58,777 nucleotides of DNA from positions 1 through 58,777 of the forward strand of contig JBEKSG010000006.1 in the NCBI GenBank assembly GCA_049997855.1, written 5' to 3'. Below, piece after piece: positions 6,184 through 58,777 of the stretch. The notes beneath the pieces are model-generated. The model ran no database searches. It was not told the DNA's origin and was given only the letters and a program-made list of their open reading frames with translations. Position 1 is the stretch's first letter. The number at the start of each line of letters is the position of its first letter. Source of the DNA: Minisyncoccia bacterium. GTDB lineage: Bacteria; Patescibacteriota; Minisyncoccia; Phycocordibacterales; SBAW01. Position numbers and translations under genes: made by a program.

Positions 6184-7145
6184 AAGGCGTACAAGATGCG
6201 GAGGTGGCAGGCAAACGCGTACTGCTACGTGTCGACTACAACGTGCCGATCGAAAACAGCGTCATCACGAATGACTCGCGCATGCGCGCAACGCTGCCCA
6301 CTATCAACCTTTTGCGCGACAAAGGCGTAGCAAAAATTATGTTGGCGACGCACCTGGGTCGCCCCGGTAGCAAAGTGGTCGAGGAGTTGCGCACGGCGCC
6401 GCTTTTTGCACACTTGCGGACGTTGACCGACACTGCCAACATCGATATGCTCGAAAATCTGCGTTTTAATCCCGGTGAGGAAAGCAATGACCCCGCGTTT
6501 GCGGCAGAGCTTGCCTCCAAAGCGGATATATTTGTCAACGACGCGTTTGCCGCGTCGCACCGGGCACATGCCTCGATAGTCGGCGTTGCAAAATTGTTGC
6601 CCGCATATGCCGGTTTGCTTATGGAGCGGGAAATAGAAAAACTCTCCGCGGCGCTTGCGCCGCAAAAACCCTCGCTTGCCATTGTGAGCGGCGTCAAACT
6701 CGAAACAAAATTGCCGCTTATCGAAGTATTGGCAAAGATATACGACAAACTATTAGTGGGCGGCGCTTTAGCTGATGAGTACAAAGGCGGAGCGGTAAAT
6801 GTGTTGTTACCGGAAGATGGCATTCCCGAACGCGAACATATGTTTGATATCGGACCAAAGACGCGCGCAGTGTGGGCGGCAGAGATACAAAAAGCTGCGT
6901 TTGTATTATGGAATGGTCCTGTAGGTATGTACGAAAAAAGTGAGTACAGTGGTGGCACTAATGCTTTAGCGGCGGCACTCGCAAGCTCCGGAGCGCACGC
7001 AGTAATTGGCGGCGGAGATACTGATGAAGCGCTCGCGAAAGTACATTTCGACCCGGAAAAAGTTTTTATCTCAACCGGCGGGGGCGCCACGCTCGAGTTT
7101 GTAGCGAATGGCACGTTGCCGGGCATTGAAGTGCTCAAAGTCTAA
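6174..7145 (+). CDS. pgk: Phosphoglycerate kinase (short, 323 aa)
   Basis: RVDYNVP, ATHLGRP, NDAFAASHRAH, GGGDT, STGGGA motifs. Overlaps the tpiA end by 10 nt. Confidence 0.88.
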   Translation: MQVKGVQDAEVAGKRVLLRVDYNVPIENSVITNDSRMRATLPTINLLRDKGVAKIMLATHLGRPGSKVVEELRTAPLFAHLRTLTDTANIDMLENLRFNPGEESNDPAFAAELASKADIFVNDAFAASHRAHASIVGVAKLLPAYAGLLMEREIEKLSAALAPQKPSLAIVSGVKLETKLPLIEVLAKIYDKLLVGGALADEYKGGAVNVLLPEDGIPEREHMFDIGPKTRAVWAAEIQKAAFVLWNGPVGMYEKSEYSGGTNALAAALASSGAHAVIGGGDTDEALAKVHFDPEKVFISTGGGATLEFVANGTLPGIEVLKV

Positions 7146-9246: not shown

Positions 9247-9972
9247 ATGGGAAAAGATACTGATACGATAATTATTTTTTGTGACGGAGCTGCCAAGGGC
9301 AATCCGGGCCCCGGCGGATGGGGCGCTTTGGTTGCCACGCATGCGCGTGTGCAAGAGCTCGGCGGCAAAGTTGCGCATACCACCAACAATCGCATGGAGC
9401 TCACGGCGGCGGCCGAGGCTCTTACCTATGCGGGCAAATTCTCCGGCAAACAGATTGTGATGCACACCGATTCCTCTTATGTAATCAACGGCATTACCAA
9501 GTGGGTACAGGGATGGAAAAAAAACGGCTGGAAAACAAAAGATAAAAGAGAAGTGTTAAACAAAAATTTGTGGATGCAGCTTAATGCCACCGTGCAAAAC
9601 ATTGCTGGTAGCATCACATGGCGTTATGTCGGCGGGCACGTGGGTGTTCTCGGCAACGAGCGCGTCGACGCTATTGCCTCCGATTTTGCGGAGGGTAAAA
9701 AAGTTAAACTCTATAACGGTCCACGCAGCAAGTATACAATCGACATAACAAACCTCGGGCGCGACGAGAGTTTACATAAAGAAAAATCGGCATCGCGAGA
9801 GCGTTCCAAGGCAAAAGCCTACTCCTATGTAAGTAAAGTCGGCGGGAAAATCGCCACGCACAAAACATGGGGCCAGTGCGAGGCGTGCGTCAAAGGCAAA
9901 GTGGCTCGCTATAAAAAGGCTCTCTCGTCGGAGGACGAAGCGTCCATCATTAAAGAGTTTTCTTCACGCTGA
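9247..9972 (+). CDS. rnhA: Ribonuclease HI with a C-terminal hybrid-binding-like domain
   Basis: RNase H core (FCDGAAKGNPGPGGWG, TNNRMEL, DSSYV, GNERVDAIA). The C-terminal about 50 aa (YSYVSKVGGKIATHKTWGQCEACVKG..ARYKKALSSEDEA) resemble an RNase H1-type HBD. Confidence 0.85.
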   Translation: MGKDTDTIIIFCDGAAKGNPGPGGWGALVATHARVQELGGKVAHTTNNRMELTAAAEALTYAGKFSGKQIVMHTDSSYVINGITKWVQGWKKNGWKTKDKREVLNKNLWMQLNATVQNIAGSITWRYVGGHVGVLGNERVDAIASDFAEGKKVKLYNGPRSKYTIDITNLGRDESLHKEKSASRERSKAKAYSYVSKVGGKIATHKTWGQCEACVKGKVARYKKALSSEDEASIIKEFSSR

Positions 9973-10006: not shown

Positions 10007-11482
10007 GTGAAAGTTGAGTACTCAGGCGGCGCTTTTTTGTACGTGTTGGCCGCCAGCTTGGCAGGTGGCGTTGCCTGTGCGCTCATTGTTACTATACCCA
10101 CCACCCTGCTTTTGGTGTGCGTAACGATTGCGCTTGCTCTCATGGTAGCAGGAGCTTTTGCGCGCACACGCGTGCTTTTGCTTATCGCAATCGCGCTTGT
10201 GGCATTCATGCTCGGTGTCGTGCGTGGAGATTTGTTTTTATATAAAGAGTCGCAAGAAAATGTTTCTGCATTTTTGGGCAAGGCAACGGTCGTTGGTACG
10301 ATTGTGAGCGACCCGGTGCAAAGTGGCGCGCACGTGCAAGCCGATGTGGCGGTGTCGTCGGTAAACGGCACTCCCGCACGCGGTACGCTCCTCGCATTTT
10401 TGTCGCCGTATGTAACTGCGGCTTACGGGCAGGAGGTGACGCTTGGCGGCACGCTCGAGGCTCCTGCGAGTTTTATCGGCGACAATGGCAACACGTTTGA
10501 TTACCCCAATTATTTGCGCGTACAGGGCGTCTCGATGTTGCTCATGCAAGCTCTGCTTGAGCAGGTCGCACCTGCAAAACTTTCGTTATATGGCGTGTTG
10601 TTTACCATCAAACACGTGTTTGAGGCATCAATTGCACGCACGCTGAGTGCGCCCACAGCGTCGCTCCTTGAAGGTGTTTTGCTTGGCGAACGCCGCGGGT
10701 TGCCGCAAGATATGACCGACGCGTTTGTCGCGGCGGGGCTCATACACATCGTGATACTCTCCGGCTACAGCATGTCGGTAGTGTCGGAGGGGATTTTACG
10801 AGGGCTCGGATTTTTGCCGCGCCGCTTTCAAATGCTGTGTGCCGCGCTTTGCATGATGCTGTTTGTGATCATGACCGGCGCCGCTCCCACCACCGTGCGC
10901 GCGTGCATGATGGCGCTCGTAGCGCTCGTGGCGCGCTATCTGCATCGCACCGCGCTTGCCCTCCGGAGCCTTGCTGCCGTCGCGGTGGCGATGGTGCTGT
11001 GGAATCCGCCGCTCATCCTCGGCGACGCATCATTTTTTACCAGCGTGCTCGCAACGTTTGGGCTCATCGTGTTTGCGCCGAGTATTGAAAAAATGTTGCG
11101 ATTGATACCGCAACGTTTTGAGATGCGCTCAATTATCACTTCTACCATTGCGGTGCAGATTTTTGCACTGCCCGCGCTTTTGTACTTTACGGGCAATCTC
11201 TCGTATCTCTCGGTACCGGCCAATCTTTTGGTGTTGCCGCTTTTGCCGTTAGTAATGATTGCCGGATTTGTGACCGGCATCTGCAGTTTTATCAACACGG
11301 CGCTCGCGTTTGTGCCTGCGCTCATTGTCACTTTGCTGTTGCAATGGATAGTGCTCGTCGCGCATACCGTGCAAACGTTGCCGTTTGGGTTTGCAACATT
11401 TGCCGCGTTCCCGCTCTGGCTTGCGTTGCTAATGTACGTGCCACTAACGGCATCTGCTGTGTATTTGTTAAAGCAGAAATAA
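10007..11482 (+). CDS. comEC: ComEC/Rec2-family competence membrane protein (no MBL domain)
   Basis: 491-aa polytopic ORF; GLIHIVILSGYSMSVV and MTGAAPTTVRA blocks typical of the Competence domain. Confidence 0.8.
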   Translation: MKVEYSGGAFLYVLAASLAGGVACALIVTIPTTLLLVCVTIALALMVAGAFARTRVLLLIAIALVAFMLGVVRGDLFLYKESQENVSAFLGKATVVGTIVSDPVQSGAHVQADVAVSSVNGTPARGTLLAFLSPYVTAAYGQEVTLGGTLEAPASFIGDNGNTFDYPNYLRVQGVSMLLMQALLEQVAPAKLSLYGVLFTIKHVFEASIARTLSAPTASLLEGVLLGERRGLPQDMTDAFVAAGLIHIVILSGYSMSVVSEGILRGLGFLPRRFQMLCAALCMMLFVIMTGAAPTTVRACMMALVALVARYLHRTALALRSLAAVAVAMVLWNPPLILGDASFFTSVLATFGLIVFAPSIEKMLRLIPQRFEMRSIITSTIAVQIFALPALLYFTGNLSYLSVPANLLVLPLLPLVMIAGFVTGICSFINTALAFVPALIVTLLLQWIVLVAHTVQTLPFGFATFAAFPLWLALLMYVPLTASAVYLLKQK

Positions 11483-14119: not shown

Positions 14120-14590
14120 ATGCGTCGACCAGTTAAAAATCGCAATATCCCCGGTGCAGACCTCAAATACAACTCTCTTCGCGTGGAGAAGTTTATTAAC
14201 TCGGTTATGTGGGACGGCAAAAAAAGCACTGCGCGCAAGGTGGTGTACGACGCGTTTGACCTCATTAAAGAAAAAACAAAAACCGAAAATCCGGTTGAGC
14301 TTTTTGAAACAGCCGTCCGCAACGTAGGGCCGGTGATGGAAATCCGCTCGCGCCGCGTGGGCGGCGCCAACTACCAGGTGCCGCGCGAGGTGCGCCCCGA
14401 GCGCAAGCAAGCATTGGCGTTTCGCTGGATACTCGGCGCCGCTCGCGGCGCCAAAGGCAAGCCGATGGCCGAGAAGCTCGCGGCCGAGCTCATTGCCGCA
14501 TCCAACAACGAGGGTCCTGCTATAAAAAAGCGCGACGATACGCTCAAGATGGCCGAGGCCAACAAAGCCTTTGCCCACTTCGCGTGGTAA
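14120..14590 (+). CDS. rpsG: 30S ribosomal protein S7
   Basis: 156-aa ORF; VGGANYQVP and [15 protein letters not shown]-terminus. Confidence 0.95.
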
Positions 14591-14596
14591 AAATGT

Positions 14597-14626
14597 TTGC
14601 ATCTTCGCTTTTCATTTTTATATAAG
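14597..14626 (+). promoter_or_regulatory. Sigma-70-like promoter (TTGCAT-N17/18-ATATAA/TATAAG)
   Basis: Lies immediately after the rpsG stop and upstream of the island gene at 14688. A GTGTGG/CCACAC hairpin sits in the leader. Confidence 0.45.
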
Positions 14627-14687
14627 TGTTCTATAGTCAAGCGCGTGTGGCGTGGAATCCTCCACACACCGAGCCGAGGAGGGCTCA

Positions 14688-16637: not shown

Positions 16638-18791
16638 ATGCCAACAAAACGGGATTATCCCTTGGAAAAGGTGCGAAACTTCGGCATCATTGCGCACATC
16701 GATGCGGGCAAAACCACTGTCTCCGAGCGTATTTTGTATTACACCGGCAGCCAGCACAAAATCGGCGAGGTGCACGAGGGCGATACCACCACCGACTGGA
16801 TGGAGCAGGAGCGCGAGCGCGGCATCACGATTACCGCCGCAGCCGTCACCTGTTTTTGGAGCAAGACAAACGAGCCCGATAAAAAAGACGCTTCCAAAAA
16901 ATATCGCTTTAATATTATCGACACTCCCGGACACATCGACTTTACCGTGGAGGTTAAACGCTCGATGCGCGTGCTCGACGGCGCGGTGGTGGTGTTCGAC
17001 GGCGTCGCCGGCGTCGAGCCGCAGTCCGAAACTAATTGGCGTTACGCCGACGAGGCTGCTGTGCCACGCGTGTGCTTTATCAACAAGCTCGACCGCACGG
17101 GTGCCTCCTTTGAAAAATCGTACCAATCCATTTTAGACCGCCTCACCAAATATGCCGTGCGCATGCAGATACCAGTCGGCATCGAGGATAAGTTTGAGGG
17201 CGTTGTCGATCTTCTCACTTTGAAGGCTTACAAATTTGAGGGCGACATGGGCGACCGTGTGGTCGAATACGACGTTCCGGCGGGGCTTGTGGAAGAGGCG
17301 CAAAAATATCGCGCCGAACTGATCGAAAAGATTGTTGAGCATGACGAGGCGTTGATGACCGAATATCTCGACGGCAAAGAACCAAGCCTCGAGCAATTGC
17401 AAGTCACGCTCCGCAAGGCGGTCATCGACAATAAAGTTTTTCCCGTCTATTGCGGTTCCGCGCTCAAAAACAAAGGCGTACAGCTAATCCTTGATGCGGT
17501 TGTCGACTATCTGCCGTCGCCGCTCGATATGCCGCCGGTCAAAGGCATCAATCCTAAAACAGGCGAGGAGGTGGTACGCCACGCCTCTGATGAGGAGCCG
17601 TTTTGTGCGCTCGCGTTTAAACTCCAAGCCGACCCGTTTGTAGGACAGCTCACCTTCTTCCGCGTCTACTCCGGCACCATCGAGGCGGGCTCGTATCTGT
17701 ACAACTCAACCACTGGCTCCAAAGAGCGCCTCGGCCGCATCGTGCGGCTCCAAGCAAACGAGCGCGAGGAGGTTAAAAAAGTGTTTGCCGGCGAAATCGC
17801 CGCGGCGGTAGGGCTTAAAGACACGCGCACCTCGCACACGCTCTGCGATGAGGCACATCCGATACAGCTTGAGCAGATTAAATTCCCCGAGCCGGTTATC
17901 CAGTTGCGCATCGAGCCAAAGACAAAAGCCGACCAGGAAAAAATGGGCATGGCGATGAAAAAGCTTGCAGACGAGGACCCAACCTTTAAGGTTTCCACCG
18001 ATGCCGAAACCATGGAGACACTCATCTCCGGCATGGGGGAGCTTCACCTCGAGATTTTAGTCGACCGCATGAAGCGCGAGTTTGGCGTCGAGGCAAACGT
18101 CGGCAAGCCGCAGGTGGCGTACCGCGAGACTATCACGCAAGCGGCCGAGGCCGAGGGCAAATACATCAAACAAACCGGCGGCAGAGGTCAGTACGGCCAC
18201 GTCAAACTGCGCATTAAGCCGCTCCCGCCGCTCGTTCCCGAAAAGAAAATTGCTAAAAACGTTACCCGCGAAGACCACTTTGAGTTTATCAACAACATCA
18301 AGGGCGGCGTAGTGCCGCAGGAGTTTATCGGGCCTGTTGAAAAAGGAGTGCGCGAAGCTATGGAGCGGGGAATTGTTGCCGGCTTTAGAATGGTCGACAT
18401 CTCATGCGAGCTGTACGACGGTTCCTACCACGATGTGGACTCCTCGGAAATTGCCTTTAAAATAGCTGCATCGATGGCTTTCCAAGAAGCGGCTAAGGCG
18501 GCGCGCCCAGTGCTGCTTGAGCCGATTATGCGCGTCGAAGTAGTGGTGCCCGAGCAATTCATGGGCGAGATTACCGGCAGCCTCTCCGGCAAGCGCGGGC
18601 AAATTGAGGGTACGGAAGAACGCGGCCTCGCGCGCGCCATCAAAGCCAAAGTGCCGCTTTCGGAGATGTTTGGCTACACCACAGCGCTCCGCTCCATGAC
18701 CGAAGGCCGCGCAAGCTTTACTATGGAGTTTGACCACTACGAGGTGGTTCCGCCTAACGTGGCAACAGCTATCATTGCCGCTCGGAAGTAA
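16638..18791 (+). CDS. fusA: Elongation factor G
   Basis: 717-aa ORF; G1 [22 protein letters not shown]. Confidence 0.97.
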
Positions 18792-18904
18792 CAGGAATCC
18801 TGCTCGGGGTTGCGCTTTTACGCGTACTCCTATATATTTCTAGGTAACGCAATAGGGGGTGTTTTCCTATGCTCAATTAATTATTAGTTTAGAAAATCAT
18901 TATC

Positions 18905-20104
18905 ATGGCAAACTTTGATAGGCAGAAGCCGCACCTTAACGTAGGCACCATCGGCCACGTTGACCACGGCAAAACGACGCTTACCGCGGCGATACTCCAT
19001 ACGCTCGACATGGCGAAGGCGCAAGGATACAGCGCCCGCGTCGAGAACGTCGACAAAATCGACAGCGCTCCCGAGGAAAAAGCGCGCGGCATTACCATCG
19101 CGCTCCACCACTCGGAGTACGAAACTCCCAACCGCCACTACGCGCACATCGATGCGCCGGGCCACGCTGATTACATCAAAAACATGATTACCGGCGCCGC
19201 TCAAATGGACGGCGCAATTCTCGTGGTTGCTGCAACCGACGGCGTGATGCCGCAAACCCGCGAGCACATCCTTCTTGCCAGGCAAGTGGGCGTGCCAAAA
19301 GTCATCGTCTTTCTCAACAAGTGCGATATGGTAGACGACAAAGACCTCATCGACCTCGTCGAGGAGGAGGTGCGAGAGCTTCTTACCAAGCAGGGTTTTG
19401 ACGGTGCAAACGCGCCGGTTATCCGCGGCTCGGGCCTCAAAGCGCTCGAGAGCAATGACTTGAGCAACGAGTGGTCGCAAAAAGTACTTGAGCTCGTCAA
19501 CACGCTCGACACCTACATCCCCGAGCCCAAGCGCGAGCTCGACAAACCGTTCCTCATGCCTATTGAAGACATCTTCTCCATCGAAGGCCGCGGCACCGTG
19601 GTGACCGGCCGCATCGAGCGCGGCGTAGTAAAGATAGGCGACGAGGTTGAAATTGTCGGTCTCGAGCCTACCACCAAGACCACCGTTACCGGTATCGAAA
19701 TGTTTAACAAACAGCTCGAGAGCGGCCAAGCGGGCGATAACGCAGGCGTACTCTTACGCGGCACTAAAAAGGAGGATGTCCATCGCGGCCAGGTGCTTGC
19801 CAAGCCGGGTTCGGTAACGCCGCACACCGACTTCGAGGGCGAGGTATACATCCTTACCAAAGAGGAGGGCGGCCGCCATACGCCGTTCTTTAGCGGATAC
19901 AAACCGCAGTTTTATGTCCGCACGACCGATGTGACCGGCGAGGTAACGCTTGCCGCGGGCACCGAGATGGTCATGCCGGGCGACACCGTCACCTTTAAAG
20001 TTAAACTTGTAGCCCCGGTAGCTATGGAGGTCCAAACCCGCTTCGCAGTCCGCGAGGGCGGCAAGACAGTGGGTGCAGGCGTTGTCACCAAAATAATTGC
20101 GTAA
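18905..20104 (+). CDS. tuf: Elongation factor Tu
   Basis: 399-aa ORF; [22 protein letters not shown]. Confidence 0.98.
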
Positions 20105-41401: not shown

Positions 41402-41776
41402 TGGTGGAGATGGCGCGAGTTGAACGCGCGTGCAATGAAGTGTCGCAGAGAGCTTCTACCAGGTGTAGGACATTTTAATTTTCTTAGGCTCTTATGTTTA
41501 AAATGAGCAAAATCATTTTGAGCCGCAGATTGCAAGTTTCGGCAAATGGTCGAATCAACCCCACTCGCTATATCCTGTTTTATAACATCCTACATCCGCG
41601 ATCAGGCCACGCGGAGAAGATGCGAAGTCCTTAGGCTAATGCGTAAGAGACCTCGTTCGCCGAGAAATACGGCGATGCAACTGACTTTGCAGTTATGGTT
41701 ACCGGATTTTTAAGAAGGTCCGGACTTCTACCTCGCACTCGGTGCAAAGGCTTCATTGTCTAGGCCCGGCATCCCC
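41402..41776 (-). ncRNA. ssrA: Transfer-messenger RNA (tmRNA)
   Basis: The 5' GGGGAUG pairs with the 3' CAUCUCC-ACCA (G3:U pair). T-arm GCGCG-UUCAACU-CGCGC. Tag reading frame GCA AAG UCA GUU GCA UCG CCG UAU UUC UCG GCG AAC GAG GUC UCU UAC GCA UUA GCC UAA (..SYALA*). Lies 4 nt downstream of smpB. Confidence 0.9.
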
Positions 41777-46724: not shown

Positions 46725-46796
46725 GGGCGCGTAGCTCAGCGGTAGAGCAGCCGTCTTATACACGGCCGGTCCCTGGTTCGAGCCCAGGCGCGCCCA
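46725..46796 (+). tRNA. tRNA-Ile with anticodon UAU
   Basis: Perfect cloverleaf: acceptor GGGCGCG/CGCGCCC, D stem GCTC/GAGC, anticodon stem GCCGT/ACGGC with loop CTTATAC, T arm CCTGG-TTCGAGC-CCAGG. No encoded CCA. Confidence 0.85.
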
Positions 46797-46804
46797 CAAA
46801 ACAA

Positions 46805-50293: not shown

Positions 50294-51898
50294 CTAACGG
50301 AGAGGTGCCAGAGCGGTCGAATGGAGCAACCTGCTAAGTTGTTGTCCGGGAAACTGGACCGAGGGTTCGAATCCCTCCCTCTCCGCAATAGGTAGGACAG
50401 GACTAGATATATCAAAATTATTTTGGGCTTCACGCAGTGAAGCCCATTGTGGTTGAGCCACGCCGCGCGCTTCGCGCGTATGTAAGGAAAGGTTGGAGCC
50501 GAAGATTTTTTGGAGGGAGAGTTTTTTGGAGGGGAGGTCGTTCGATTTTTCCGTTTCATTAAGTAATGAAGCGTCCTTTATGAAATCTCGCAGAGGTTGG
50601 AGCCAAAGCGTAGCGTCATGCTCCAGTCGGACGATCTGCTCCTCGGCCGACTTGCGCTCAGACATGAGCGCACGCCTCCGCTCAAGATAGGTGTCGCGGT
50701 CTATGTCCTGCTCGGAATAGAGGTCAACGAAGCGGCTCATCTTGCCGTCCAGTTGAGCAATTTTGGTTCGCAAGTCTTGCACGGCAGTCATAGCAACGGA
50801 TTCGGCTTTCTGCTCGTCTTCGTTAGCCAAACGATATAACTCTTGCGTCCAGTCCGTAGGCATAACGTAGAGCGAAAGCAGGTCGGAGAGTTGAGCACTC
50901 AATACCTCCTCGCGGATATAGGACTGCGAACAGACACCGCGTTTCTTGGTACAGCGATAGTAGACGTAGCGGTGGACGTTCCCGTTCTTCTGATGCTTCG
51001 TGATAACTTCTCCGGTTATCATCCCGCCGCACTCGCCGCAACGCATGATGCCGCACAAGGGCTGCGGCTCGTTCTTGGGCTTATGGCGTTGTCTGCCGCG
51101 CAACTCTAAAACGTCCTGCACTCTGTCGAAAACAGCTTTTGAAATGAGCGGAGTATGCACGCCTTTGTATATCTCTCCGGCATACTCAAAATGGCCGTAG
51201 TAGAAGGAGTTGGTGAGCATCTTCTTGATGCTGTCTTTCTTTAGGGACTTGTCGCCACTGCTGCCGGACTTCTTGATCTGCTTGGTTCTGATACCACGCT
51301 CGTACAGAAAAGCCGATACATCTTCAAAACGGGATTTGTTCTCGGCGTACAGCTCGAAGGCTGCTCGTATAGCCGGAGCTTTGCGGCGATCAACTTCAAC
51401 ACGCTTGGTACGCGGATTATTTATGTAGCCCAACGGAGCAAGCCCCGGATACTCTCCGCGTCTCGCTTTCTCGCGTTGTCCTCGTTTCGTGTTCGCGCTC
51501 AAATCGCGGATGTACTGGTTCGCCATACCTAACTCAACAGACATCATCAATACGTTATCGGCAGGCAGAAAACTGCGGTCGTGGGTTTGTATGTGCTGAA
51601 TGACGCTCTGCTGCAAAAGCCAGCTTATCTGTCCACCGTCTACGGGATTGCGTGCGAGGCGGTCTATCTTCCAACACACAATGCCCTGCGCCTCTCCCGC
51701 GATGATGTGCCGGATCATTTCGTTGAAAACGGGACGGCCCGGCTTCTTGGCTGACTGTTTCTCCACGAACTCGGATACGATCTCCAAACCCTCGCGCTTG
51801 GCGAGGGAGCGCAACTCGGAAAGCTGCGCGTCTATCGAGAGGACTTGCTTGTCCTCGACATCGGTAGATTTGCGGGCGTAGAGGAAGTAGGTAGACAT
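50294..51898 (-). CDS. Large serine recombinase (resolvase/invertase N-domain, recombinase domain, zinc ribbon with coiled coil)
   Basis: YARKSTDVED (catalytic Ser), DRLARN, and CGECGG...YYRC motifs. The last about 80 codons run through IR1-L and then antisense through tRNA-Ser, so the true C-terminus is uncertain. Confidence 0.88.
   Translation of the reverse strand: MSTYFLYARKSTDVEDKQVLSIDAQLSELRSLAKREGLEIVSEFVEKQSAKKPGRPVFNEMIRHIIAGEAQGIVCWKIDRLARNPVDGGQISWLLQQSVIQHIQTHDRSFLPADNVLMMSVELGMANQYIRDLSANTKRGQREKARRGEYPGLAPLGYINNPRTKRVEVDRRKAPAIRAAFELYAENKSRFEDVSAFLYERGIRTKQIKKSGSSGDKSLKKDSIKKMLTNSFYYGHFEYAGEIYKGVHTPLISKAVFDRVQDVLELRGRQRHKPKNEPQPLCGIMRCGECGGMITGEVITKHQKNGNVHRYVYYRCTKKRGVCSQSYIREEVLSAQLSDLLSLYVMPTDWTQELYRLANEDEQKAESVAMTAVQDLRTKIAQLDGKMSRFVDLYSEQDIDRDTYLERRRALMSERKSAEEQIVRLEHDATLWLQPLRDFIKDASLLNETEKSNDLPSKKLSLQKIFGSNLSLHTREARGVAQPQWASLREAQNNFDISSPVLPIAEREGFEPSVQFPGQQLSRLLHSTALAPLR
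50299..50385 (+). tRNA. tRNA-Ser with anticodon GCU
   Basis: Type II tRNA: acceptor GGAGAGG/CCTCTCC, D arm CCA-GAGCGGTCGAA-TGG, anticodon loop CTGCTAA, long variable arm GTCC..GGAC, T arm GAGGG-TTCGAAT-CCCTC. Confidence 0.9.
50384..50540 (+). repeat. Inverted repeat IR1, left copy
   Basis: 157/157 match to the reverse complement of 54456-54612. Contains GGGCTTCAC-gca-GTGAAGCCC and CGCGCG-ctt-CGCGCG hairpins. Confidence 0.95.
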
Positions 51899-51956
51899 AC
51901 GTCTATTATACCATAATAGGTAGTGTATAACAGAATGGCGAGCTATAATGTTTATA

Positions 51957-52163
51957 ATGAAAAGTGAAGCTCAAAAGCTAGGAGAAAACCTTAAACGCAT
52001 TAGGACGGAAAAGGGTATGTCACAAGGCGATATTGTACGAGAACTGGGTATGCCGAGGAGTTTCGTGAGTAGCATAGAAAATGGGCGGACTAATCCGACG
52101 CTTGCGACAATAGCAAAATTAGCAAAAGCGATAGGTGTATCAACTGATGAGTTGTTGAAATAA
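51957..52163 (+). CDS. XRE-family HTH protein (probable R-M controller, C protein)
   Basis: LKRIRTEKGMSQGDIVRELGMPRSFVSSIENGRTNPTLATIAKLAKAIG. Lies immediately upstream of the methyltransferase; an alternative ATG is at 51948. Confidence 0.8.
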   Translation: MKSEAQKLGENLKRIRTEKGMSQGDIVRELGMPRSFVSSIENGRTNPTLATIAKLAKAIGVSTDELLK

Positions 52164-52164
52164 T

Positions 52165-53253
52165 ATGAAAGATATTGATTTAGTCATGCCGCCAAAAGCA
52201 CTGCAAACAAATCTATTTGGAGACAAGATCAAGTCCCACAAGCTTCCAAAGACACAGTATTTGGGGAGTAAGGAGCGTTTAGTAAATTGGATATATGACA
52301 ATGCCCCTAAAGATATTGAGACCGTCTTAGATGCTTTTAGCGGCACATCCGTTGTCGGTTATATTTTTAAGTCGAAAGGCAAAAAAGTTATTGGGAACGA
52401 TTTTCTAAAATTCAATTTCCACATTGGTAAGGCAGTGATTGAAAACAACAATCAGACTCTTGATGAGGATGATCTATCAACTCTCTTTAGGAAAAATAAA
52501 CAAGCGCAGACTTTGATTGAAGATGTTTTTACTGGAGTATTTTTTGAACGTGAACAGGCACAATTTCTAGATAATTTTCGAGCAAATGTGAATTTGCTCC
52601 GAAATGAAATTAAGCAGTCTCTCGCTTTAGCAGTTATGAGCCGCGCACTGACTCGCAAAATTCTGCTAGGTCACTTCGCACATCTAAGTGCATTGAGATA
52701 TAGCAAAGACCCGTTGAGGATAAAAAGAAATCCAACAATTGCTCGACCCTTACAGGATTTATTCTTGGAATTGGTTGGTGAATACAACAATGCTGTTTTC
52801 GACAACGGCAAAAATAACAAATTTTATTGTGAGGACACAATACAACTTGTCTCAAAGCTGAAAGGGATTGATCTGGTATACTTCGATCCACCCTATTGTG
52901 GCTGCCATCCTGATTATCAGGCGTTCTATCACTTCTTGGAGACCTTCGTCGAATATTGGAAAGATAAAGAATTTATCAACGGCACAAAACAATATTTCCC
53001 TAAAAAAGAAAGTGGTTTTGTGCAAAAAACGGAGATTATTGACTCATTTGCAAAATTGTTCGAGGCCAGTGATCATATACCGTATTGGCTAATTTCATAT
53101 AACAGTAAAAGTTATCCGGAAAAGGATACAATGATTGAACTTATAAAAAAACATAAGCAGGTAAAAGTATATGAATACGAATATGAAAATCATTATGGTG
53201 GCAAGGGTTCGAGGAAAGGGACAAAAGAGTATCTTTTCTACTGTTTTAATTAA
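52165..53253 (+). CDS. N6-adenine DNA methyltransferase (D12/Dam-like class)
   Basis: YLGSK N-terminal motif, FSGTS AdoMet motif, and catalytic DPPY. Confidence 0.85.
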   Translation: MKDIDLVMPPKALQTNLFGDKIKSHKLPKTQYLGSKERLVNWIYDNAPKDIETVLDAFSGTSVVGYIFKSKGKKVIGNDFLKFNFHIGKAVIENNNQTLDEDDLSTLFRKNKQAQTLIEDVFTGVFFEREQAQFLDNFRANVNLLRNEIKQSLALAVMSRALTRKILLGHFAHLSALRYSKDPLRIKRNPTIARPLQDLFLELVGEYNNAVFDNGKNNKFYCEDTIQLVSKLKGIDLVYFDPPYCGCHPDYQAFYHFLETFVEYWKDKEFINGTKQYFPKKESGFVQKTEIIDSFAKLFEASDHIPYWLISYNSKSYPEKDTMIELIKKHKQVKVYEYEYENHYGGKGSRKGTKEYLFYCFN

Positions 53254-53259
53254 AAAATT

Positions 53260-54357
53260 ATGAATAAGTTCAAGCAACTGAAACAACTTTATCAAGACAA
53301 TAAATTTGATGTCTTGCTGAAAGACCCTGAGAGTGTCTATTGGCTCAAACTACGCTCAATCTCTCGAAAGGAATTGATGGTTGATTTTTGTATGGAGAAC
53401 GGAATTAGTTGTACAGGGATAAGAGGCGCGGCACTCTTTGAACATATCTACGATTCTAAGCCTGACGAGAAAGTTGTCGATAAGTTCATAGCACAAAAAT
53501 ATTCTGTTGAACGAGCAGCAAGAAAAGCGAATGAGACCAAACTTATCTCGGAGTTGTATAAAATGAAAGTGCTCGATTGGGGAGGACTTTACCAAAACAA
53601 TCTTGAGAGAACGATTGTCGATAATTACATAAAGAAAATTACTGATTTCGACCTTCTCAACGAAAAAATTGAAAAAGAAATCCACGCGAGCATGCGTGGA
53701 TACGTCCAGTCGTCGTGGTTTAATCACTGGACATCAATTTTGATAGAGGATATTGTCAAGGACAACAAAAAAGTCATTCCTACTGTTGGCTTGATTAAGA
53801 AAGTGGACTTCTTCATCTCAAACGTCCCCTTTGATCTGAAAGTCACATATTTCCCAGAAGGTTATATGTTGGCAAGACGTAAAACCTTAGGCCTGCCTAC
53901 TGAAATCAAACTCCTAAAAAGATTTTCGAAAGCTAAGGGTATCCGGTACGACAAAACTCAAAAGGACAAAGCTCTGATGTCGGAATTACTTACGCGTATC
54001 TCGGAAAGAACCGACATAGAATCCAAGAGATTTATTGAGGAATTTAAAGCGGCTAGGTGGAAAATAGTTGAAGATACCATTAAAGATAAGAAATCTCTCA
54101 TCCGGTGGCTTTACGAGGAACAGGGTGAACGTAGATTTGATGCCGCAAATCGACTTTTCTTAGTACTGATCGATAAGGAGAACATGGAGGATAGTTGGAA
54201 AATGAAAAGAAATATCGAGTTGTTGGGCGATGAAGTAAATGCTTATCTCGATAAATTCAATCCTAAGGACACATCGACCCTCGACATTGAATTTGATTGG
54301 ATGGATGGCAAAAAATATAATACTGTTTCTGACGCGATATTTATCGTCAAAAAATAA
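53260..54357 (+). CDS. Probable type II restriction endonuclease
   Basis: 365-aa ORF directly after the methyltransferase. Carries a PD-(D/E)XK-like signature VDFF...FDLKV. No other recognisable domain. Confidence 0.55.
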   Translation: MNKFKQLKQLYQDNKFDVLLKDPESVYWLKLRSISRKELMVDFCMENGISCTGIRGAALFEHIYDSKPDEKVVDKFIAQKYSVERAARKANETKLISELYKMKVLDWGGLYQNNLERTIVDNYIKKITDFDLLNEKIEKEIHASMRGYVQSSWFNHWTSILIEDIVKDNKKVIPTVGLIKKVDFFISNVPFDLKVTYFPEGYMLARRKTLGLPTEIKLLKRFSKAKGIRYDKTQKDKALMSELLTRISERTDIESKRFIEEFKAARWKIVEDTIKDKKSLIRWLYEEQGERRFDAANRLFLVLIDKENMEDSWKMKRNIELLGDEVNAYLDKFNPKDTSTLDIEFDWMDGKKYNTVSDAIFIVKK

Positions 54358-54455
54358 TCTGCATGGGAGTTTCGCCGATCTTCACGGCGAAAAAACAGAC
54401 TGCCTATAACACGCGCACGGGTGGTGTGGGGCAAGTGTTATATCAAAAACGTATT

Positions 54456-54612
54456 CGACCTCCCCTCCAAAAAACTCTCCCTCCAAAAAATCTTCGGCTC
54501 CAACCTTTCCTTACATACGCGCGAAGCGCGCGGCGTGGCTCAACCACAATGGGCTTCACTGCGTGAAGCCCAAAATAATTTTGATATATCTAGTCCTGTC
54601 CTACCTATTGCG
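54456..54612 (-). repeat. Inverted repeat IR1, right copy (duplicates the 3' end of the recombinase gene)
   Basis: Exact reverse complement of 50384-50540. This explains the track ORF 54421..54654. Confidence 0.95.
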
Positions 54613-54775
54613 CAGCTCTACTGCGTTCTTAGAACCCATTTTAGCAGAAAATGAGACTTCTAGGGTAGTCATTCGGGCGTGATCTACCCCTTCATTCACC
54701 CCTTCATTCGACCTACACCGGAATGAAGGGGTAGCTCCTCTCGATATTGGCTTCAACACTCGCTCTTTGCCATAT

Positions 54776-54934
54776 CCTCGCGAAAAAACTCAACCCCTAC
54801 TTCACTCCGCAACACCCCGTGTGTTGCTCCGTGAAGGACGGCCACGGAGTACCGTGTCCGTCCGCCCCCGTTCGAGTCCGGTGGCTCGGCCTTCTCCTTC
54901 CGTCCTGCTGTCTCTTTTTGCTCGTGTGGGGGGG
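54776..54934 (+). repeat. Inverted repeat IR2, left copy
   Basis: Matches the reverse complement of 58618-58777, with 2 substitutions and a G7/C8 homopolymer difference at the inner edge. Contains three consecutive hairpins and a GTTCGAGTCC T-loop-like motif. Confidence 0.9.
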
Positions 54935-55004
54935 TAGAACTGCGAAAAAGGATAGGACGGGAAGGAAGAAGGCCTCGTTCGAGGGGGTCTAAAACAGGTA
55001 TACT

Positions 55005-55880
55005 TTGGATGTGTCTAGTGAACCAAAACCACGTCGTCAAAAGTTCGTTCGAGGTGAAGCCGACCCCCTCAGATTGACGTCCCGCGACACCGCAATTCTT
55101 TCCGATGTGGCCGAGTACCGCTTTTTGAATACGGAACAACTTCTGTCTTTGCACGAAGGGAGCCGCCGCAACATCGTTGAGCGATTGAGCCTTCTCTACC
55201 ATCACCACTTTCTTGATAGGCCAAAGGTGCAAAAAGCGGCAAACCTAGCGTCTGCCCATGTCGTCTATTCTCTCGACCGAAAAGGCGTTGATGTATTAGC
55301 CAAGGACGCGCAGGAGCGGCAAGGAATTTTGCGCCGCGTGCAGGAGGTTAAACACACGTCGCCCCTCATCGCTCACGCTTTGATGATCTCACAATTCCGC
55401 GTTTGCCTTACGCTCGCGCTCAAAAGTCGTCCGAGTGTAAAGCTCATACGCTGGACGCAGGGCAACGATCTAAAAACTCTGTTGCGGCATCGCGGCGAAA
55501 ATCCCGAACTCGTGCCGGATGCCTTTTTCATTCTAGATACGTCCGAGTTTAAGTACCCGTGTTTTCTCGAAGCGGATCGCGGGACGATGACGGAGGAGAG
55601 GTTTGTAAATAAGCTCCGGCTATACTGGCGGCACTACCGCGAGGATCGTTTCAACAAGACGCTCGGCATTTCCCATTTCCGCGTCCTCACCATTACCCCG
55701 AACGAAGCGCGGAGCGCGAACTTGTGCCGCGCCGCCAAAGAAGCCGACGACCGCAAGCAAGGCAGTGGCATGTTTCTATTTATGTCCGAGACAGCATACG
55801 GGACGACGAGGCCGGACGAGCTGTTGAAGGAGGCCTGGAAATGTCCGAAATTCGATACGATGCAGGGTATCATTCATTGA
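55005..55880 (+). CDS. Replication-relaxation family protein (wHTH plus PD-(D/E)XK-like core)
   Basis: 291-aa ORF; LTSRDTAILSDVAEYRFLNTEQL, PDAFFILD, and FLEADRGTM motifs. Confidence 0.65.
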   Translation: MDVSSEPKPRRQKFVRGEADPLRLTSRDTAILSDVAEYRFLNTEQLLSLHEGSRRNIVERLSLLYHHHFLDRPKVQKAANLASAHVVYSLDRKGVDVLAKDAQERQGILRRVQEVKHTSPLIAHALMISQFRVCLTLALKSRPSVKLIRWTQGNDLKTLLRHRGENPELVPDAFFILDTSEFKYPCFLEADRGTMTEERFVNKLRLYWRHYREDRFNKTLGISHFRVLTITPNEARSANLCRAAKEADDRKQGSGMFLFMSETAYGTTRPDELLKEAWKCPKFDTMQGIIH

Positions 55881-56022
55881 CGGCCGACTGGGGCACGAGA
55901 GAAGCCCTGAAAACTCGCTATCGCTCGCGTTCAGAACTAGGACAGTTCTGAAAAACATAAATATAGTCTATGTTTTTACTCGCATCCTTGGAACTGTAAA
56001 ACTACTAGCCTATACTGCGATT

Positions 56023-56871
56023 ATGAGTCATCTTGGAGATATACAGTATGCAGGCGTGGCCGGGATATCGAGAGATTGCGAAGACGCCGTTCTACGGTTC
56101 CTGCAATACGGGGATCGGATAACGAAGGTGCGAATCCTTTCCGCAAACGCAACTCATTGTTTGCTGCTTACCACTAATTCGGGCGATCTTGTTGCGATCA
56201 AAACTGGCTTCGCGTCCGGCTATAACGGCGAGGGGCCGCGGCGCTTTTCGTATGTGCTCGCGATTCTCGATGCCTATGAGATTGAGATAGAGGAGTACGA
56301 CGTGAAAGGGTCGCTCCTAACACGCGTTGATAATTCCGCACTAGAAAAGTCAGATCTTGATGTAATCAAGAATACGCGTCCGGTACGGGGTGCCCGTTGG
56401 CGCGATTACGTTTACCTTGAACACGAAGATCCAAAACAGTGGGATGCACTATGGCAAGAGTTTCCTCCTGCAATTCCGTTCGGTATCATCGACAGCAGGA
56501 TCATTGATCTCGCAATCTCGTTCTGGGAGAATCCAGACGATAAGATTTTTACAGGATACCGCCGTCTTGAAGATATCGTTCGAGAAAGGATTGGTAGCAA
56601 AGAACACGGCGCAGAATTGTTCTCTCGCGCTTTTTTAGGATCGCCCCCTCAGCTTGGATGGAAAGACATTCATAACGGGAGTGAACAGGCGGGTAGAGCG
56701 AATCTATTTAAAGATGCGTATCTTGCATACCGTAATCCTCGTGGGCATAGGGAGCCGAAGCAAGGCCATCAAGCCCGACAAAATCTTAGAGAATTTCTCC
56801 TTCTGAATCATCTCTATACTCTCGAAAAGGAGGCTATTCCGATGGAGGTTGCCGAAAGTAAAACTCTATAA
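56023..56871 (+). CDS. Two-domain protein with a C-terminal TIGR02391/Ymh-type domain
   Basis: The C-terminal pattern LFSRAF...GRANLFKDAYLAYRNPRGHRE...REFLLLNHLY matches my memory of the Ymh family. The N-domain is unknown. Confidence 0.55.
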   Translation: MSHLGDIQYAGVAGISRDCEDAVLRFLQYGDRITKVRILSANATHCLLLTTNSGDLVAIKTGFASGYNGEGPRRFSYVLAILDAYEIEIEEYDVKGSLLTRVDNSALEKSDLDVIKNTRPVRGARWRDYVYLEHEDPKQWDALWQEFPPAIPFGIIDSRIIDLAISFWENPDDKIFTGYRRLEDIVRERIGSKEHGAELFSRAFLGSPPQLGWKDIHNGSEQAGRANLFKDAYLAYRNPRGHREPKQGHQARQNLREFLLLNHLYTLEKEAIPMEVAESKTL

Positions 56872-56916
56872 GTTATCTGCTCTTCAACTTTTGCGAGAAA
56901 GGACTAAAGTGGTAAA

Positions 56917-57111
56917 ATGGCTAATATGAAACAGCAATCTAAGAAAACGAAGACGGCAAAAAAGCTTATAGACCTGTATGAGCAGTATCAGGTATTCAGA
57001 CGTGTTTCTGAAATGGCACCAAAAAGGAAACTACTCCCTTTTACGCTCGATCAGGAAATAGAGAGCATAAATCCCTACTATGTACGAAATGAAAACGTGA
57101 ACTATGGCTAA
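56917..57111 (+). CDS. Small basic hypothetical protein
   Basis: 64-aa ORF overlapping the next gene's start by 8 nt (translational coupling). Confidence 0.45.
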   Translation: MANMKQQSKKTKTAKKLIDLYEQYQVFRRVSEMAPKRKLLPFTLDQEIESINPYYVRNENVNYG

Positions 57112-58138
57112 GAATGAAGACGAAGTGAGAGAGCCGGAGGTCTTGCCTCTACCAGATTCGCAACAGCAACCCAAACAGGTGAGTACATTCGAGGAACCAT
57201 ACTTTATGAGTCTCGAAAGAGACAAGCAGCAAAGTAAAAGGGCTTTTGAAGACAGTAGAAAAAACGCGCGAGTAGAAAGAATAAAGGCGATACAGAATAT
57301 TAGGGGCGGATCTAAGATCGTCGTTTATTATTCGATTGGTACTTTGACCGCAAACGACGCAGAAATTCTTTTCGACCTCCTTCAGAGTGTTGGTAAACAG
57401 AAAAAACTTGATCTGTTTTTACTAAGCCCCGGTGGTTATGTTGACCCCGCTTTTAAAATGGCGAAGATGTGCCGTGACTTCGCTGAAGAAAAATTTGGAA
57501 TAATAATTCCGCACTACGCGAAAAGTGCGGCCACTCTCCTTTCTCTCGGAGGCGACGAACTGGTGATGGGATCTGCATCGGAAATCGGGCCGATAGATCC
57601 ACAAATTGAGATAATGGATGAATATGGTAGAAAATTTAATGTTTCAGCGAACTCTGTCGAGGATGCTCTAGAAGTCATCGAGGAGCACTCGGCTGGCGAT
57701 CCCATAAAGTCTTTGAAGTACATGCCGTTGATAGAAAAAATCAACTTGAACACTCTTGGCCAATATCGAAGGGCGTTGGATAGCTCTAAGCAATATGCGA
57801 AAGATTTATTAAAGACGGGGAAACTTCTCAAGAAGAGAGACGCGAAAACAATAGAATCAGTTGCGAATAAATTAGCAACTTATTATTTTTCGCATGCTTA
57901 TCCAATCAAAACCGATGTTGCGGCAAGGGAACTACATTTTAACGTCGTAGATGCAAGCGCGAATAAACCACTCTGGCAAGCTATGTGGCAGCTCCATAAG
58001 CTTTATGATGCGATGATAAAAGAATCACGCACCGACAAAACGATGATAACTACAATTTTTGAAGCGGAAGAGTTCAGCGTATCAATGACGAAATCTCTAG
58101 TACAAGAGCAAGAACAATATGAGCAAAGAAGAAAATAA
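57104..58138 (+). CDS. SDH-family ClpP-fold serine proteinase
   Basis: LDLFLLSPGGYVDPAFKM, YAKSAATLLSLGGDE, and IGPIDPQ motifs. Confidence 0.7.
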   Translation: MAKNEDEVREPEVLPLPDSQQQPKQVSTFEEPYFMSLERDKQQSKRAFEDSRKNARVERIKAIQNIRGGSKIVVYYSIGTLTANDAEILFDLLQSVGKQKKLDLFLLSPGGYVDPAFKMAKMCRDFAEEKFGIIIPHYAKSAATLLSLGGDELVMGSASEIGPIDPQIEIMDEYGRKFNVSANSVEDALEVIEEHSAGDPIKSLKYMPLIEKINLNTLGQYRRALDSSKQYAKDLLKTGKLLKKRDAKTIESVANKLATYYFSHAYPIKTDVAARELHFNVVDASANKPLWQAMWQLHKLYDAMIKESRTDKTMITTIFEAEEFSVSMTKSLVQEQEQYEQRRK

Positions 58139-58520
58139 AACTGAGCGGCCAATATTGCAGTTCTCTGTCCTATGCGATGGAATCGCCACTCCGAAGGAAA
58201 TGGGGAATAAGCCCGTTTTCATTGGCGTATTCAGTAGTTTATTAAGGCCGATGGCACTGCCTCAGTTTTTTATTGTTAATAGATGGATAAGTGGCCTCGG
58301 CGAGCATACGCAGATAATCAAAATACTTGATCCGGATTTGAAAGAAATAGCAAAAACCCAAGCCCAAAAGTTGGTTCTAACATCAAAGGTGGGTTCTGCC
58401 GATGTAGTTAATGCGTTTGTAAATCTAAATTTCCCTAAGGCGGGAGTATATTGGATAAAAATCGAACTTGATGAAAAAACCGCGATGTCGTATCCGCTTC
58501 CGGTTTTTGAAATGAAGTAA
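58119..58520 (+). CDS. Small hypothetical protein, translationally coupled to the protease gene
   Basis: 133-aa ORF overlapping the preceding gene by 20 nt. Beta-rich composition with no catalytic motif recognised. Confidence 0.5.
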   Translation: MSKEENKTERPILQFSVLCDGIATPKEMGNKPVFIGVFSSLLRPMALPQFFIVNRWISGLGEHTQIIKILDPDLKEIAKTQAQKLVLTSKVGSADVVNAFVNLNFPKAGVYWIKIELDEKTAMSYPLPVFEMK

Positions 58521-58538
58521 GCGCATTAAATTAGTTTC

Positions 58539-58571
58539 GCTCACGGCCATGCGGCCGTGAGCTTTTATTTT
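58539..58571 (+). terminator. Rho-independent terminator
   Basis: 10-bp stem GCTCACGGCC/GGCCGTGAGC followed by TTTTATTTT. Confidence 0.8.
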
Positions 58572-58617
58572 CTTAGCGGTTTGAAAAATATTTCATATTT
58601 TTCAATTTCTATTTATT

Positions 58618-58777
58618 CCCCCCCCACACGAGCAAAAAGAGACAGTAGGACGGAAGGAGAAGGCCGAGCCACCGGACGCGAACGGGGGCGGACGGACACG
58701 GTACTCCGTGGCCGTCCTTCACGGAGCAACACACGGGGTGTTGCGGAGTGAAGTAGGGGTTGAGTTTTTTCGCGAGG
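58618..58777 (-). repeat. Inverted repeat IR2, right copy (truncated by the window end)
   Basis: Its reverse complement aligns base for base with 54776-54934, apart from 2 substitutions. Confidence 0.9.

Follow-up and report, generated by a model that had tools for sequence, protein, structure and literature searches.

The subject of this report is the right-hand end of a 58,777-nt contig from a Minisyncoccia bacterium (JBEKSG010000006.1, assembly GCA_049997855.1; the whole stretch is called the window here), where a large serine recombinase (LSR) gene and a relaxase gene lie in neighbouring cassettes, each of them apparently enclosed by its own pair of long inverted repeats (IR1 and IR2). 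The whole segment from 50381 to past the last letter of the window, 58777, is probably a single mobilizable element that has integrated at a tRNA gene and that carries an inverted duplication of its attachment site (attP) and origin of transfer (oriT). The target is a tRNA-Ser(GCT) gene on the forward strand at 50299-50386 (ARAGORN; Rfam tRNA match of 55 bits), the 3′ end of which (..CTCTCCG|CA) meets the element. The LSR gene (50294-51898, reverse strand, 534 aa) matches Resolvase, Recombinase and the zinc-ribbon family Zn_ribbon_recom in Pfam (E = 8.5e-21, 3.5e-13 and 1.1e-10, respectively). The recombinase cassette is enclosed by the IR1 arms at 50381-50540 and 54456-54615, which the repeat search found to be 160 nt long and 99% identical, with 157 nt perfect. 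The outer arm, "q", contains the last ~50 LSR codons and a terminator-like hairpin (50424-50446) and ends, as deduced by junction comparison, at the recombination core CGCA at about 50384-50387; the internal arm is an inverted copy of the LSR 3′ end.

A repeat search of the window, in which the arms were compared letter by letter, bore out the preliminary description of the second repeat. IR2 pairs 54776-54934 with 58619-58777 (159 nt, 99% complementary, 3684 nt between the arms), and the arms differ by the two substitutions described, A/C at 54875 and G/A at 54907, and by a run of seven versus eight G at the inner edge. By our own estimate the chance expectation for a repeat of this kind in 58.8 kb is ~1e-81, and the window contains two copies only. 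Between the arms, at 55005-55880 on the forward strand, lies the gene for a 291-aa Replic_Relax protein (PF13814, E = 2.9e-24). The contexts of Replic_Relax homologues were fetched, the loci being named L0xx, and each was compared with itself for repeats. The cassette bounded by IR2 was recovered at 100% identity, both copy-specific IR2 differences included, in two independent assemblies: contig Ga0427918_0037017 of JGI 3300037843 (L001; 4191 nt) and Logan contig SRR12951267_289682 (L002; 3800 nt), the latter from a different read set.

It had been suspected that the repeat is longer than the window shows, and this is the case. L001 adds 20 nt past the window end, all of which continue IR2; with this contig IR2 is directly shown to measure at least 179 nt (54756-54934), and the distal copy (58619-58777, reverse strand), cut by the window end, runs at least 20 nt further. 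The segment at 54616-54775, part of what had been taken for a 163-bp spacer between the cassettes, matches, in alignment, the outer portion of the repeats found in related elements (285-325 nt) and belongs to IR2. On this homology the full IR2 arm is predicted to measure ~327 nt, about 54608-54934; IR2 abuts IR1 (54456-54615), and TGCG is common to both. The distal copy should, on this prediction, end at about 58945, with the core and then the chromosomal flank after it, and full-length distal copies are present in L010, L018, L021, L023, L028 and L031. The JGI counterpart of the window, a 258-kb contig, stops at 54733 and shares 127 nt (54607-54733) with L001. This overlap is an assembly-graph junction, the start of which coincides with the predicted outer end of IR2; simple k-mer logic gave no account of the right end of L001, 20 nt past the window. 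Exact-pattern scans found no match to the supposed spacer in the genome contig collection and none to the outer part of IR2 in the metagenome contig collection, the source sample being absent from both. A scan of the metagenome contigs with the iteron region of IR2 alone returned only L006 and L007, and the plasmid collection held no match to IR2.

Attachment cores and the recombinase end

IR1 and IR2 meet in an internal junction core, TGCG, at 54609-54612, which was located by junction comparison. The tRNA-side and internal junctions of the window both read ...CCTACCTAT-TGCG and then diverge, and in L021 and L031 the core is identical at all three junctions, flank/IR2, IR2′/IR1 and IR1′/tRNA (TGCTC and TGGAG, respectively). 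The shared core thus measures 4-6 bp; in the window it is TGCG at the two visible junctions, the far junction lying past the window end. Since the internal core stands in inverted orientation, a target-site duplication is ruled out. That junction has the sequence expected from joining the outer ends of the element, and may accordingly be read as an intact, inverted attP. The arms have conserved motifs near the core: the LSR arm has CTGACCTAAGTTTT, the IR2 arm TCGAAC. Measured from the core, TCGAAC is 3-4 nt more distant than is the T-loop TTCGAACC in the target tRNA. An offset of this kind has been described between attP and attB half-sites of serine integrases, and we take it as a lead only.

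The open reading frame (ORF) of the LSR crosses the IR1 arm and the core into the antisense of tRNA-Ser, and the C-terminus of the protein therefore differs between the integrated and the excised form: its last ~30 residues when integrated (…EREGFEPSVQ…) are not those expected in the excised form (…AQLYCVLRTHFSRK). A 77-aa ORF on the forward strand (54421-54654) begins 35 nt ahead of the internal IR1 copy, contains that arm and re-encodes the last ~50 LSR residues. It was called by JGI as a 76-aa gene, and L021 has an ORF like it that opens with a similar WGKCY(I/N)KN peptide. The product could be a free C-terminal recombinase fragment, or the ORF a mere by-product of the duplication. The small ORF in the supposed spacer was also considered as a route to the flank contig and dropped, because its C-terminus would differ past the core. 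Just inside the internal IR1 copy lies a conserved hairpin motif, TATAACAC-N22-GTGTTATAGGC (54402-54442, reverse strand), which is found at the same position in L010, L021, L022, L027 and L028 (L010 has it with the compensatory pair A>C / T>G). Its role may be that of an operator, a terminator or an accessory site for recombination.

The relaxase, its candidate oriT and related elements

The interior of the second cassette had been described as lacking a recombinase and as encoding a replication-relaxation-type protein with a nuclease-like core, and Pfam, AlphaFold2 (AF2) and Foldseek agree. The PF13814 match scores 86.7 bits against a Pfam cut-off of 25.3, and PF13814 is the MOBC relaxase family (PMC5357655, Table 1), the members of which are PD-(D/E)XK enzymes (PMC3424549, PMC5714925). 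The AF2 model (pLDDT 88.5) consists of an N-terminal MarR-like winged helix-turn-helix (wHTH) and a C-terminal PD-(D/E)XK nuclease domain, and Foldseek matched it to FokI (E = 3e-4), the nicking endonuclease N.BspD6I, Bse634I, BamHI and MarR-family proteins and repressors. Residues D172, E189, D191 and K203 are invariant in 27 homologues. Judged by family and fold, the protein is a relaxase of the MOBC type, with a restriction-endonuclease fold. Its homologues number in the hundreds, nearly all of them in metagenome-assembled genomes (MAGs) of Patescibacteria/Parcubacteria and mostly on short contigs. An exact look-up of the 291-aa ORF gave no record, because gene callers picked other start codons, and the plasmid collection held no close relative, the best match having 32% identity.

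The relaxase-proximal copy of IR2 (54608-54934, forward strand), delimited by repeat search, alignment and fold, is our putative oriT. Its structure was studied in an alignment of 21-23 elements, in an RNAalifold consensus structure and in a DNA fold of 54680-54985. From the terminus inwards, IR2 consists of a variable end (the att arm), then GAAC..ATTTTAGCAGAAAA, then the iterons; its outer arm, "p", has TAGAACCC. The iterons are two direct 12-mers, ACCCCTTCATTC (54686-54709), with an inverted copy at 54721-54732. Direct and inverted copies change in concert between elements, in an iteron-like manner, and co-vary with the relaxase protein. Further in are an invariant hairpin, ACTTCACTCCGC..GCTCCGTGAAG (54800-54836), a clade-specific and hence optional hairpin (54836-54863), the 5′ arm of a long stem (54888-54905) and a G-run at the inner boundary (54928-54934); across the alignment an invariant block, ACTTCACTCCGC…GCTCCGTGAA, surrounds the variable hairpin. 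The 3′ arm of the long covarying hairpin, GGACGGGAAGGAAGAAGGCC (54955-54974, forward strand; RNAalifold, alignment and DNA fold), lies outside IR2 and is found only beside the relaxase gene. Past it, the alignment has a conserved TATAAT-like box (TATACT in the window) and then the relaxase gene.

The inner boundary of IR2 falls in the apical loop of the long hairpin, straight after the G-run, and does so at the same homologous nucleotide in all 12 of 12 elements. Because IR2 stops at the hairpin apex, and GGACGGGAAGGAAGAAGGCC occurs only by the relaxase, the complete site exists only beside the relaxase gene. The long stem has compensatory changes, with double changes in 14 of its 23 predicted pairs (RNAalifold), the DNA fold yields z = -5.0, and the first iteron co-varies with the hairpin though it is not part of it. 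Each repeat arm had been described as three consecutive hairpins. The first two fold as described, the second being the optional hairpin, an insertion restricted to one subclade, but the third, "T-arm-like" hairpin pairs weakly, is not conserved and is absent from the alignment consensus structure.

In the published MOBC oriT, direct repeats lie 70-120 bp from nic inside a large inverted repeat (PMC12857230), and the layout of the window, with iterons at 54686-54732 followed by hairpins at 54800-54974, resembles it. TraX of pAD1 has a winged-helix N-terminal domain and binds direct repeats 70-120 bp from nic, with no covalent DNA intermediate observed (PMC12857230), and it is reported to recombine oriT copies (PMC5714925). 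By analogy, IR2 is most likely the oriT of the adjacent MOBC relaxase and the iterons a putative relaxase binding site, and nic would lie probably within the invariant hairpin or at the hairpin apex.

In this clade the Replic_Relax cassette is as a rule surrounded by inverted repeats that are long and near-perfect. A second, inverted IR2 copy is present in 15 elements, several of them within contigs of 61-868 kb. It measures 306 nt in L010 (100%), 325 nt in L006/L007 (100%), 313 nt in L018, 289 nt in L021, 285 nt in L023 (100%), 300 nt in L028 and 315 nt in L031 (an 868-kb contig, with an IR1 of 148 nt), and is cut by the contig end in L019, L022 and L026; in L010, L018, L023 and L028 the IR2 pairs of 285-313 nt lie inside contigs of 61-236 kb. 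The common layout is flank / IR2 – Replic_Relax cassette – IR2′ / IR1 – cargo – LSR – IR1′ / tRNA. In L021, IR2 (9625-9912 / 14288-14576) encloses the relaxase cassette and IR1 (14572-14687 / 18734-18849) encloses cargo, a helix-turn-helix (HTH) gene and the LSR gene (17385-18875), with the target tRNA-Asn at 18846-18919. L031 has the same layout with tRNA-Gly, and the window is the mirror image of both, with tRNA-Ser. The LSR-side arm adjoins tRNA-Asn in L021, tRNA-Gly in L031 and tRNA-Ala in L012b, and in L007, L010, L018, L022, L027 and L028 what comes after the distal IR2 is a C-terminal piece of the LSR, the IR1-flanking hairpin motif, or both. The earlier suggestion that the two cassettes form one composite element is supported by this recurrence, which is full in L021 and L031 and partial in L010, L018, L022, L027, L028 and L007.

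In the repeat-free elements L012, L014, L017 and L033, and in the decaying L009, an oriT-like region, the relaxase, the LSR and the tRNA form one compact unit, and the LSR 3′ end adjoins tRNA-Val, -Thr or -Leu (L009, L012, L014, L017). It follows that one element is delimited by the outer end of IR2 ("p") on one side and by the LSR 3′ end ("q") on the other. In five elements the inner boundary of IR1 falls at LSR residues ~445-459. Distant homologues (~30% identity, other phyla) lack the repeats, apart from unrelated-looking cases. One locus of a Gammaproteobacteria MAG (L077) has a 262-nt inverted repeat (98.9%; 6649-6910 / 10966-11227) that flanks a segment with a distant (33%) Replic_Relax homologue. 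L012 (10001-15159) holds two elements back to back: the first consists of relaxase and LSR at tRNA-Val, and the second, at tRNA-Ala, has a divergent LSR (36% identity) flanked by perfect inverted repeats of 124 nt, after which another IR2-type arm starts at the contig end.

The two IR2 copies of one element are 94-100% identical, as against 75-92% between elements, and the repeat boundaries are kept although relaxase identity within the family is only 52-95%. Hence the duplication is an old one, its copies having been homogenised by mutual exchange. In the window the relaxase gene has the internal IR2 copy as its neighbour, and in L006/7, L010, L018, L021, L022 and L031 the outer copy; L020 may share the orientation of the window. 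That the second cassette can be inverted, as had been proposed, is thus borne out across family members, and an inversion across IR2 must have occurred in the history of the family.

A probable single element and its alternatives

We propose that an element of ~8.6 kb, from a Patescibacteria-type host, was inserted at the 3′ end of tRNA-Ser by its own LSR. A segment X, reaching from about LSR codon 450 through the attP core to the apex of the long hairpin upstream of the relaxase, would be present twice, in inverted orientation. Its intact internal copy would be 54456-54934, and the other copy would have been split at the attP core by integration, with the LSR half left by the tRNA and the IR2 half at the far end; such a split would create the appearance of two cassettes, each with its own inverted repeat. 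The preliminary description of two separately enclosed cassettes gives way to a simpler arrangement, insofar as the arms abut and share the 4-6-bp recombination core, and IR1 and IR2 are better taken for the two halves of one inverted attP-oriT duplication. Excision by attL x attR recombination, we infer, would produce a circle in which two inverted ~480-bp copies of X separate two unique segments, one with the LSR and the restriction-modification genes and the other with the relaxase and its cargo. Recombination between the X copies would flip the segments and keep the copies near-identical, and the agent could be the LSR acting at the cores, the relaxase acting at nic, or RecA in homologous recombination.

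Several points weigh against this proposal. The last ~170 nt of IR2 and the chromosomal flank of the element were not recovered in the window, so that the third junction is drawn from relatives. The oriT and nic are assigned by analogy only, and the covariation in iterons and stems fits protein-binding palindromes equally well as hairpins. Neither a circular form nor an excision product nor an empty site was found in the genome and metagenome contig scans and the attB searches, where the reconstructed empty attB sites of L021 and L031 had no match in species-representative genomes; a circular junction would equal the internal junction in sequence. Canonical LSRs are not known to recombine attP x attP or attP x attL. 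The LSR always lies next to the tRNA, in about 8 loci, and never on the internal side, which argues against free flipping of the LSR half or against equal use of both attP sites. Lastly, no selective reason for keeping the duplication is established.

It is possible, though doubtful, that the inverted attP-oriT duplicate is a working device, and that the circle formed after excision behaves like the yeast 2-micron plasmid. The LSR would then act at the two inverted attP cores, or the MOBC relaxase at nic on the inner boundaries of IR2. Flipping would homogenise the repeats; it could serve copy-number amplification or, for a relaxase that forms no covalent DNA intermediate, the recircularisation of the transferred strand. 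It would, if true, be without precedent among integrative elements and in Patescibacteria.

The two cassettes are unlikely to be autonomous modules, each with terminal inverted repeats that form a palindromic attP in the circle, which the LSR inserts side by side with either orientation of each unit possible. Such modules would produce an identical map. Each cassette is indeed exactly bounded by its own repeat, and the relaxase cassette occurs in both orientations, but the LSR cassette is never found in the other one. Contigs of cassette size exist (L001, L002, L007 and L008), yet these are expected when an assembler breaks at repeats. The LSR-only cassette of L012, between 124-nt repeats beside tRNA-Ala, would fit such a module; it is followed by an IR2-type arm, and hence is no solo unit. 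Moreover, a perfect palindromic attP of 300 nt would be unstable, a self-complementary crossover dinucleotide would be needed whereas the L031 core, TGGAG, has none, and the repeat-free relatives hold relaxase and LSR as one unit.

A programmed invertible segment, that is, a phase-variation switch of the Hin/Gin/Cin or shufflon type flipped by the neighbouring recombinase, is very unlikely. The segment does have long inverted repeats at its flanks and a serine recombinase next to it, and family members differ in its orientation. However, since the arms are identical, inversion recreates the same junctions and exchanges neither promoters nor ORFs; the relaxase promoter and the second hairpin arm travel with the cassette. 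The recombinase is no small invertase, but a 534-aa LSR of the integrase type at a tRNA junction with att-like cores, and the cargo varies between relatives.

We find it highly improbable that IR2 is the gene of a structured non-coding RNA, be it a regulatory leader or one derived from a tRNA. A strong predicted structure (z = -5), compensatory changes in two stems, and conservation above that of the neighbouring protein-coding sequence would fit an RNA, but the tRNA-derived end that had been suggested for the repeat does not withstand scrutiny. ARAGORN finds no tRNA in IR2, and Rfam gives no tRNA match at E <= 1 and, among all RNA families, only sub-threshold chance matches in IR2. The tRNA-like TTCGAGT is a private substitution of the left IR2 copy, the right copy and the relatives having TTCGCGT, and this consensus motif is without a complementary stem. 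IR2 is no leader of the relaxase gene, given that the conserved -10 box of that gene follows it downstream, and a consensus promoter scan of 54400-55100 found no promoter. Covariation of the first iteron with a hairpin of which it is not part points to protein binding.

An assembly artefact or a dispersed multi-copy repeat, with the right copy drawn from another locus or the region a strand chimera, both of which the preliminary description had raised, is extremely unlikely, for although the window and the JGI contigs stop within the repeat or at its edge, three assemblies, including one built from another read set (SRR12951267), have the same cassette with the same copy-specific mismatches and place the right copy adjacent, the window has just two IR2 copies, and complete homologous repeat pairs lie inside 61-868-kb contigs of unrelated studies. 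A transposon with terminal inverted repeats was also considered and rejected, there being no transposase family by Pfam; nor was a target duplication found, the flanks of L010, L021, L031, L023 and L028 having the inverted shared core and no direct duplication.

Cargo and comparison with known systems

The first cassette carries, on the forward strand, genes for an XRE-type HTH protein (51948-52163), a D12-class N6-adenine DNA methyltransferase (52165-53253), both assigned by Pfam, and a 365-aa protein without a Pfam match (53260-54357). With a G+C content of 0.37-0.39 (52000-54400), against ~0.52 in the rest of the window, this block is recently acquired, restriction-modification-like cargo. 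It is probably a restriction-modification module, in which the 365-aa protein may, by its position only, be the restriction enzyme. The cargo of the second cassette, also on the forward strand, comprises a Hypoth_Ymh/HEPN-like protein (56023-56871), a 64-aa ORF (56917-57111), an SDH-type ClpP-like serine protease (57104-58138) and a DUF6941 protein (58119-58520), all but the 64-aa ORF assigned by Pfam. This set looks defence-like; the HEPN-type matches that PADLOC returned are weak only. Cargo varies from relative to relative, and the SDH protease is again found in the cargo of L021 (12611-13396) and L025 (2392-2904). Next to the inner edge of the distal IR2 copy, at 58560-58618, lies a conserved border, AATAAAT.G.GATTGAAAAATA, followed by a GC-rich terminator hairpin. 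The border also occurs at the equivalent sites of L011, L018, L023 and L028, so that the cargo slot is framed on either side by a fixed border motif. L018 (16003-16076) and L020 (3131-3203) have a tRNA-Arg(TCT) gene as cargo within the relaxase cassette. The chromosomal part of the window has a tRNA-Ile gene (anticodon TAT; 46725-46797) and a tmRNA gene (41402-41776), which are unrelated to the element.

Mobile elements of Patescibacteria, or the candidate phyla radiation (CPR), are almost undescribed. MOBC was the commonest relaxase class in a Patescibacteria/CPR survey (58 of 109), in which no element structure is given (10.1101/2025.01.22.634366). The present analysis defines a family of tRNA-integrating mobilizable elements with their ends and crossover cores, supplies a candidate oriT for a relaxase family with no known covalent intermediate, and delineates two cargo slots, with restriction-modification and defence-like genes. 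The inverted duplication explains why short-read assemblies of these elements break into cassette-sized contigs, and it offers hypotheses on recombinase- or relaxase-driven flipping and on nic at the repeat boundary.

The single-element reading places the locus close to integrative and mobilizable elements (IMEs) with a serine integrase and a relaxase with oriT, as described in streptococci (PMC5357655, PMC5704250). In these, as here, the integrase gene lies at the target end, integration is site-specific with a short common core, the relaxase gene lies by a putative oriT, and cargo is variable; the copy in the window is without mating-pore genes. The elements studied here differ in the ~480-bp inverted duplicate of LSR 3′ end, attP and oriT inside the element, and in their Patescibacteria host. 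A search of the literature found no description of this inverted attP-oriT architecture. An LSR with a MOBC relaxase and oriT is thus a known kind of IME, whereas the conserved inverted attP-oriT duplication appears, on the literature searched, to be new to the described IMEs or integrative and conjugative elements (ICEs).

TraX with oriT2 of the Enterococcus faecalis plasmid pAD1 and MobC of CloDF13 share with the window relaxase the family PF13814 and the MarR-like wHTH and PD-(D/E)XK fold, although the identity of plasmid-borne MOBC members to it is at most ~24-32%. In the MOBC oriT, too, a large inverted repeat has direct repeats and, ~100 nt away, a region rich in hairpins; here, by contrast, there is an inverted duplicate of the whole oriT-side segment as far as the hairpin apex. 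ICEclc of Pseudomonas, in which two origins of transfer are served by one relaxase (PMC5714925), is similar as one integrated element with two relaxase sites, but in the elements described here the distal copy is without the second arm of the long hairpin. The yeast 2-micron plasmid differs in that its recombinase, FLP, is a tyrosine recombinase and not a serine integrase; the present element is seen integrated, its circle being only deduced, no replication initiator was identified in it, and its LSR segment is never seen flipped. Nevertheless, the deduced circle, with two long identical inverted repeats and two unique segments, would resemble both the 2-micron plasmid and plastid genomes, and would share with the former a recombinase target in each repeat, concerted evolution of the repeats, and orientation isomers.

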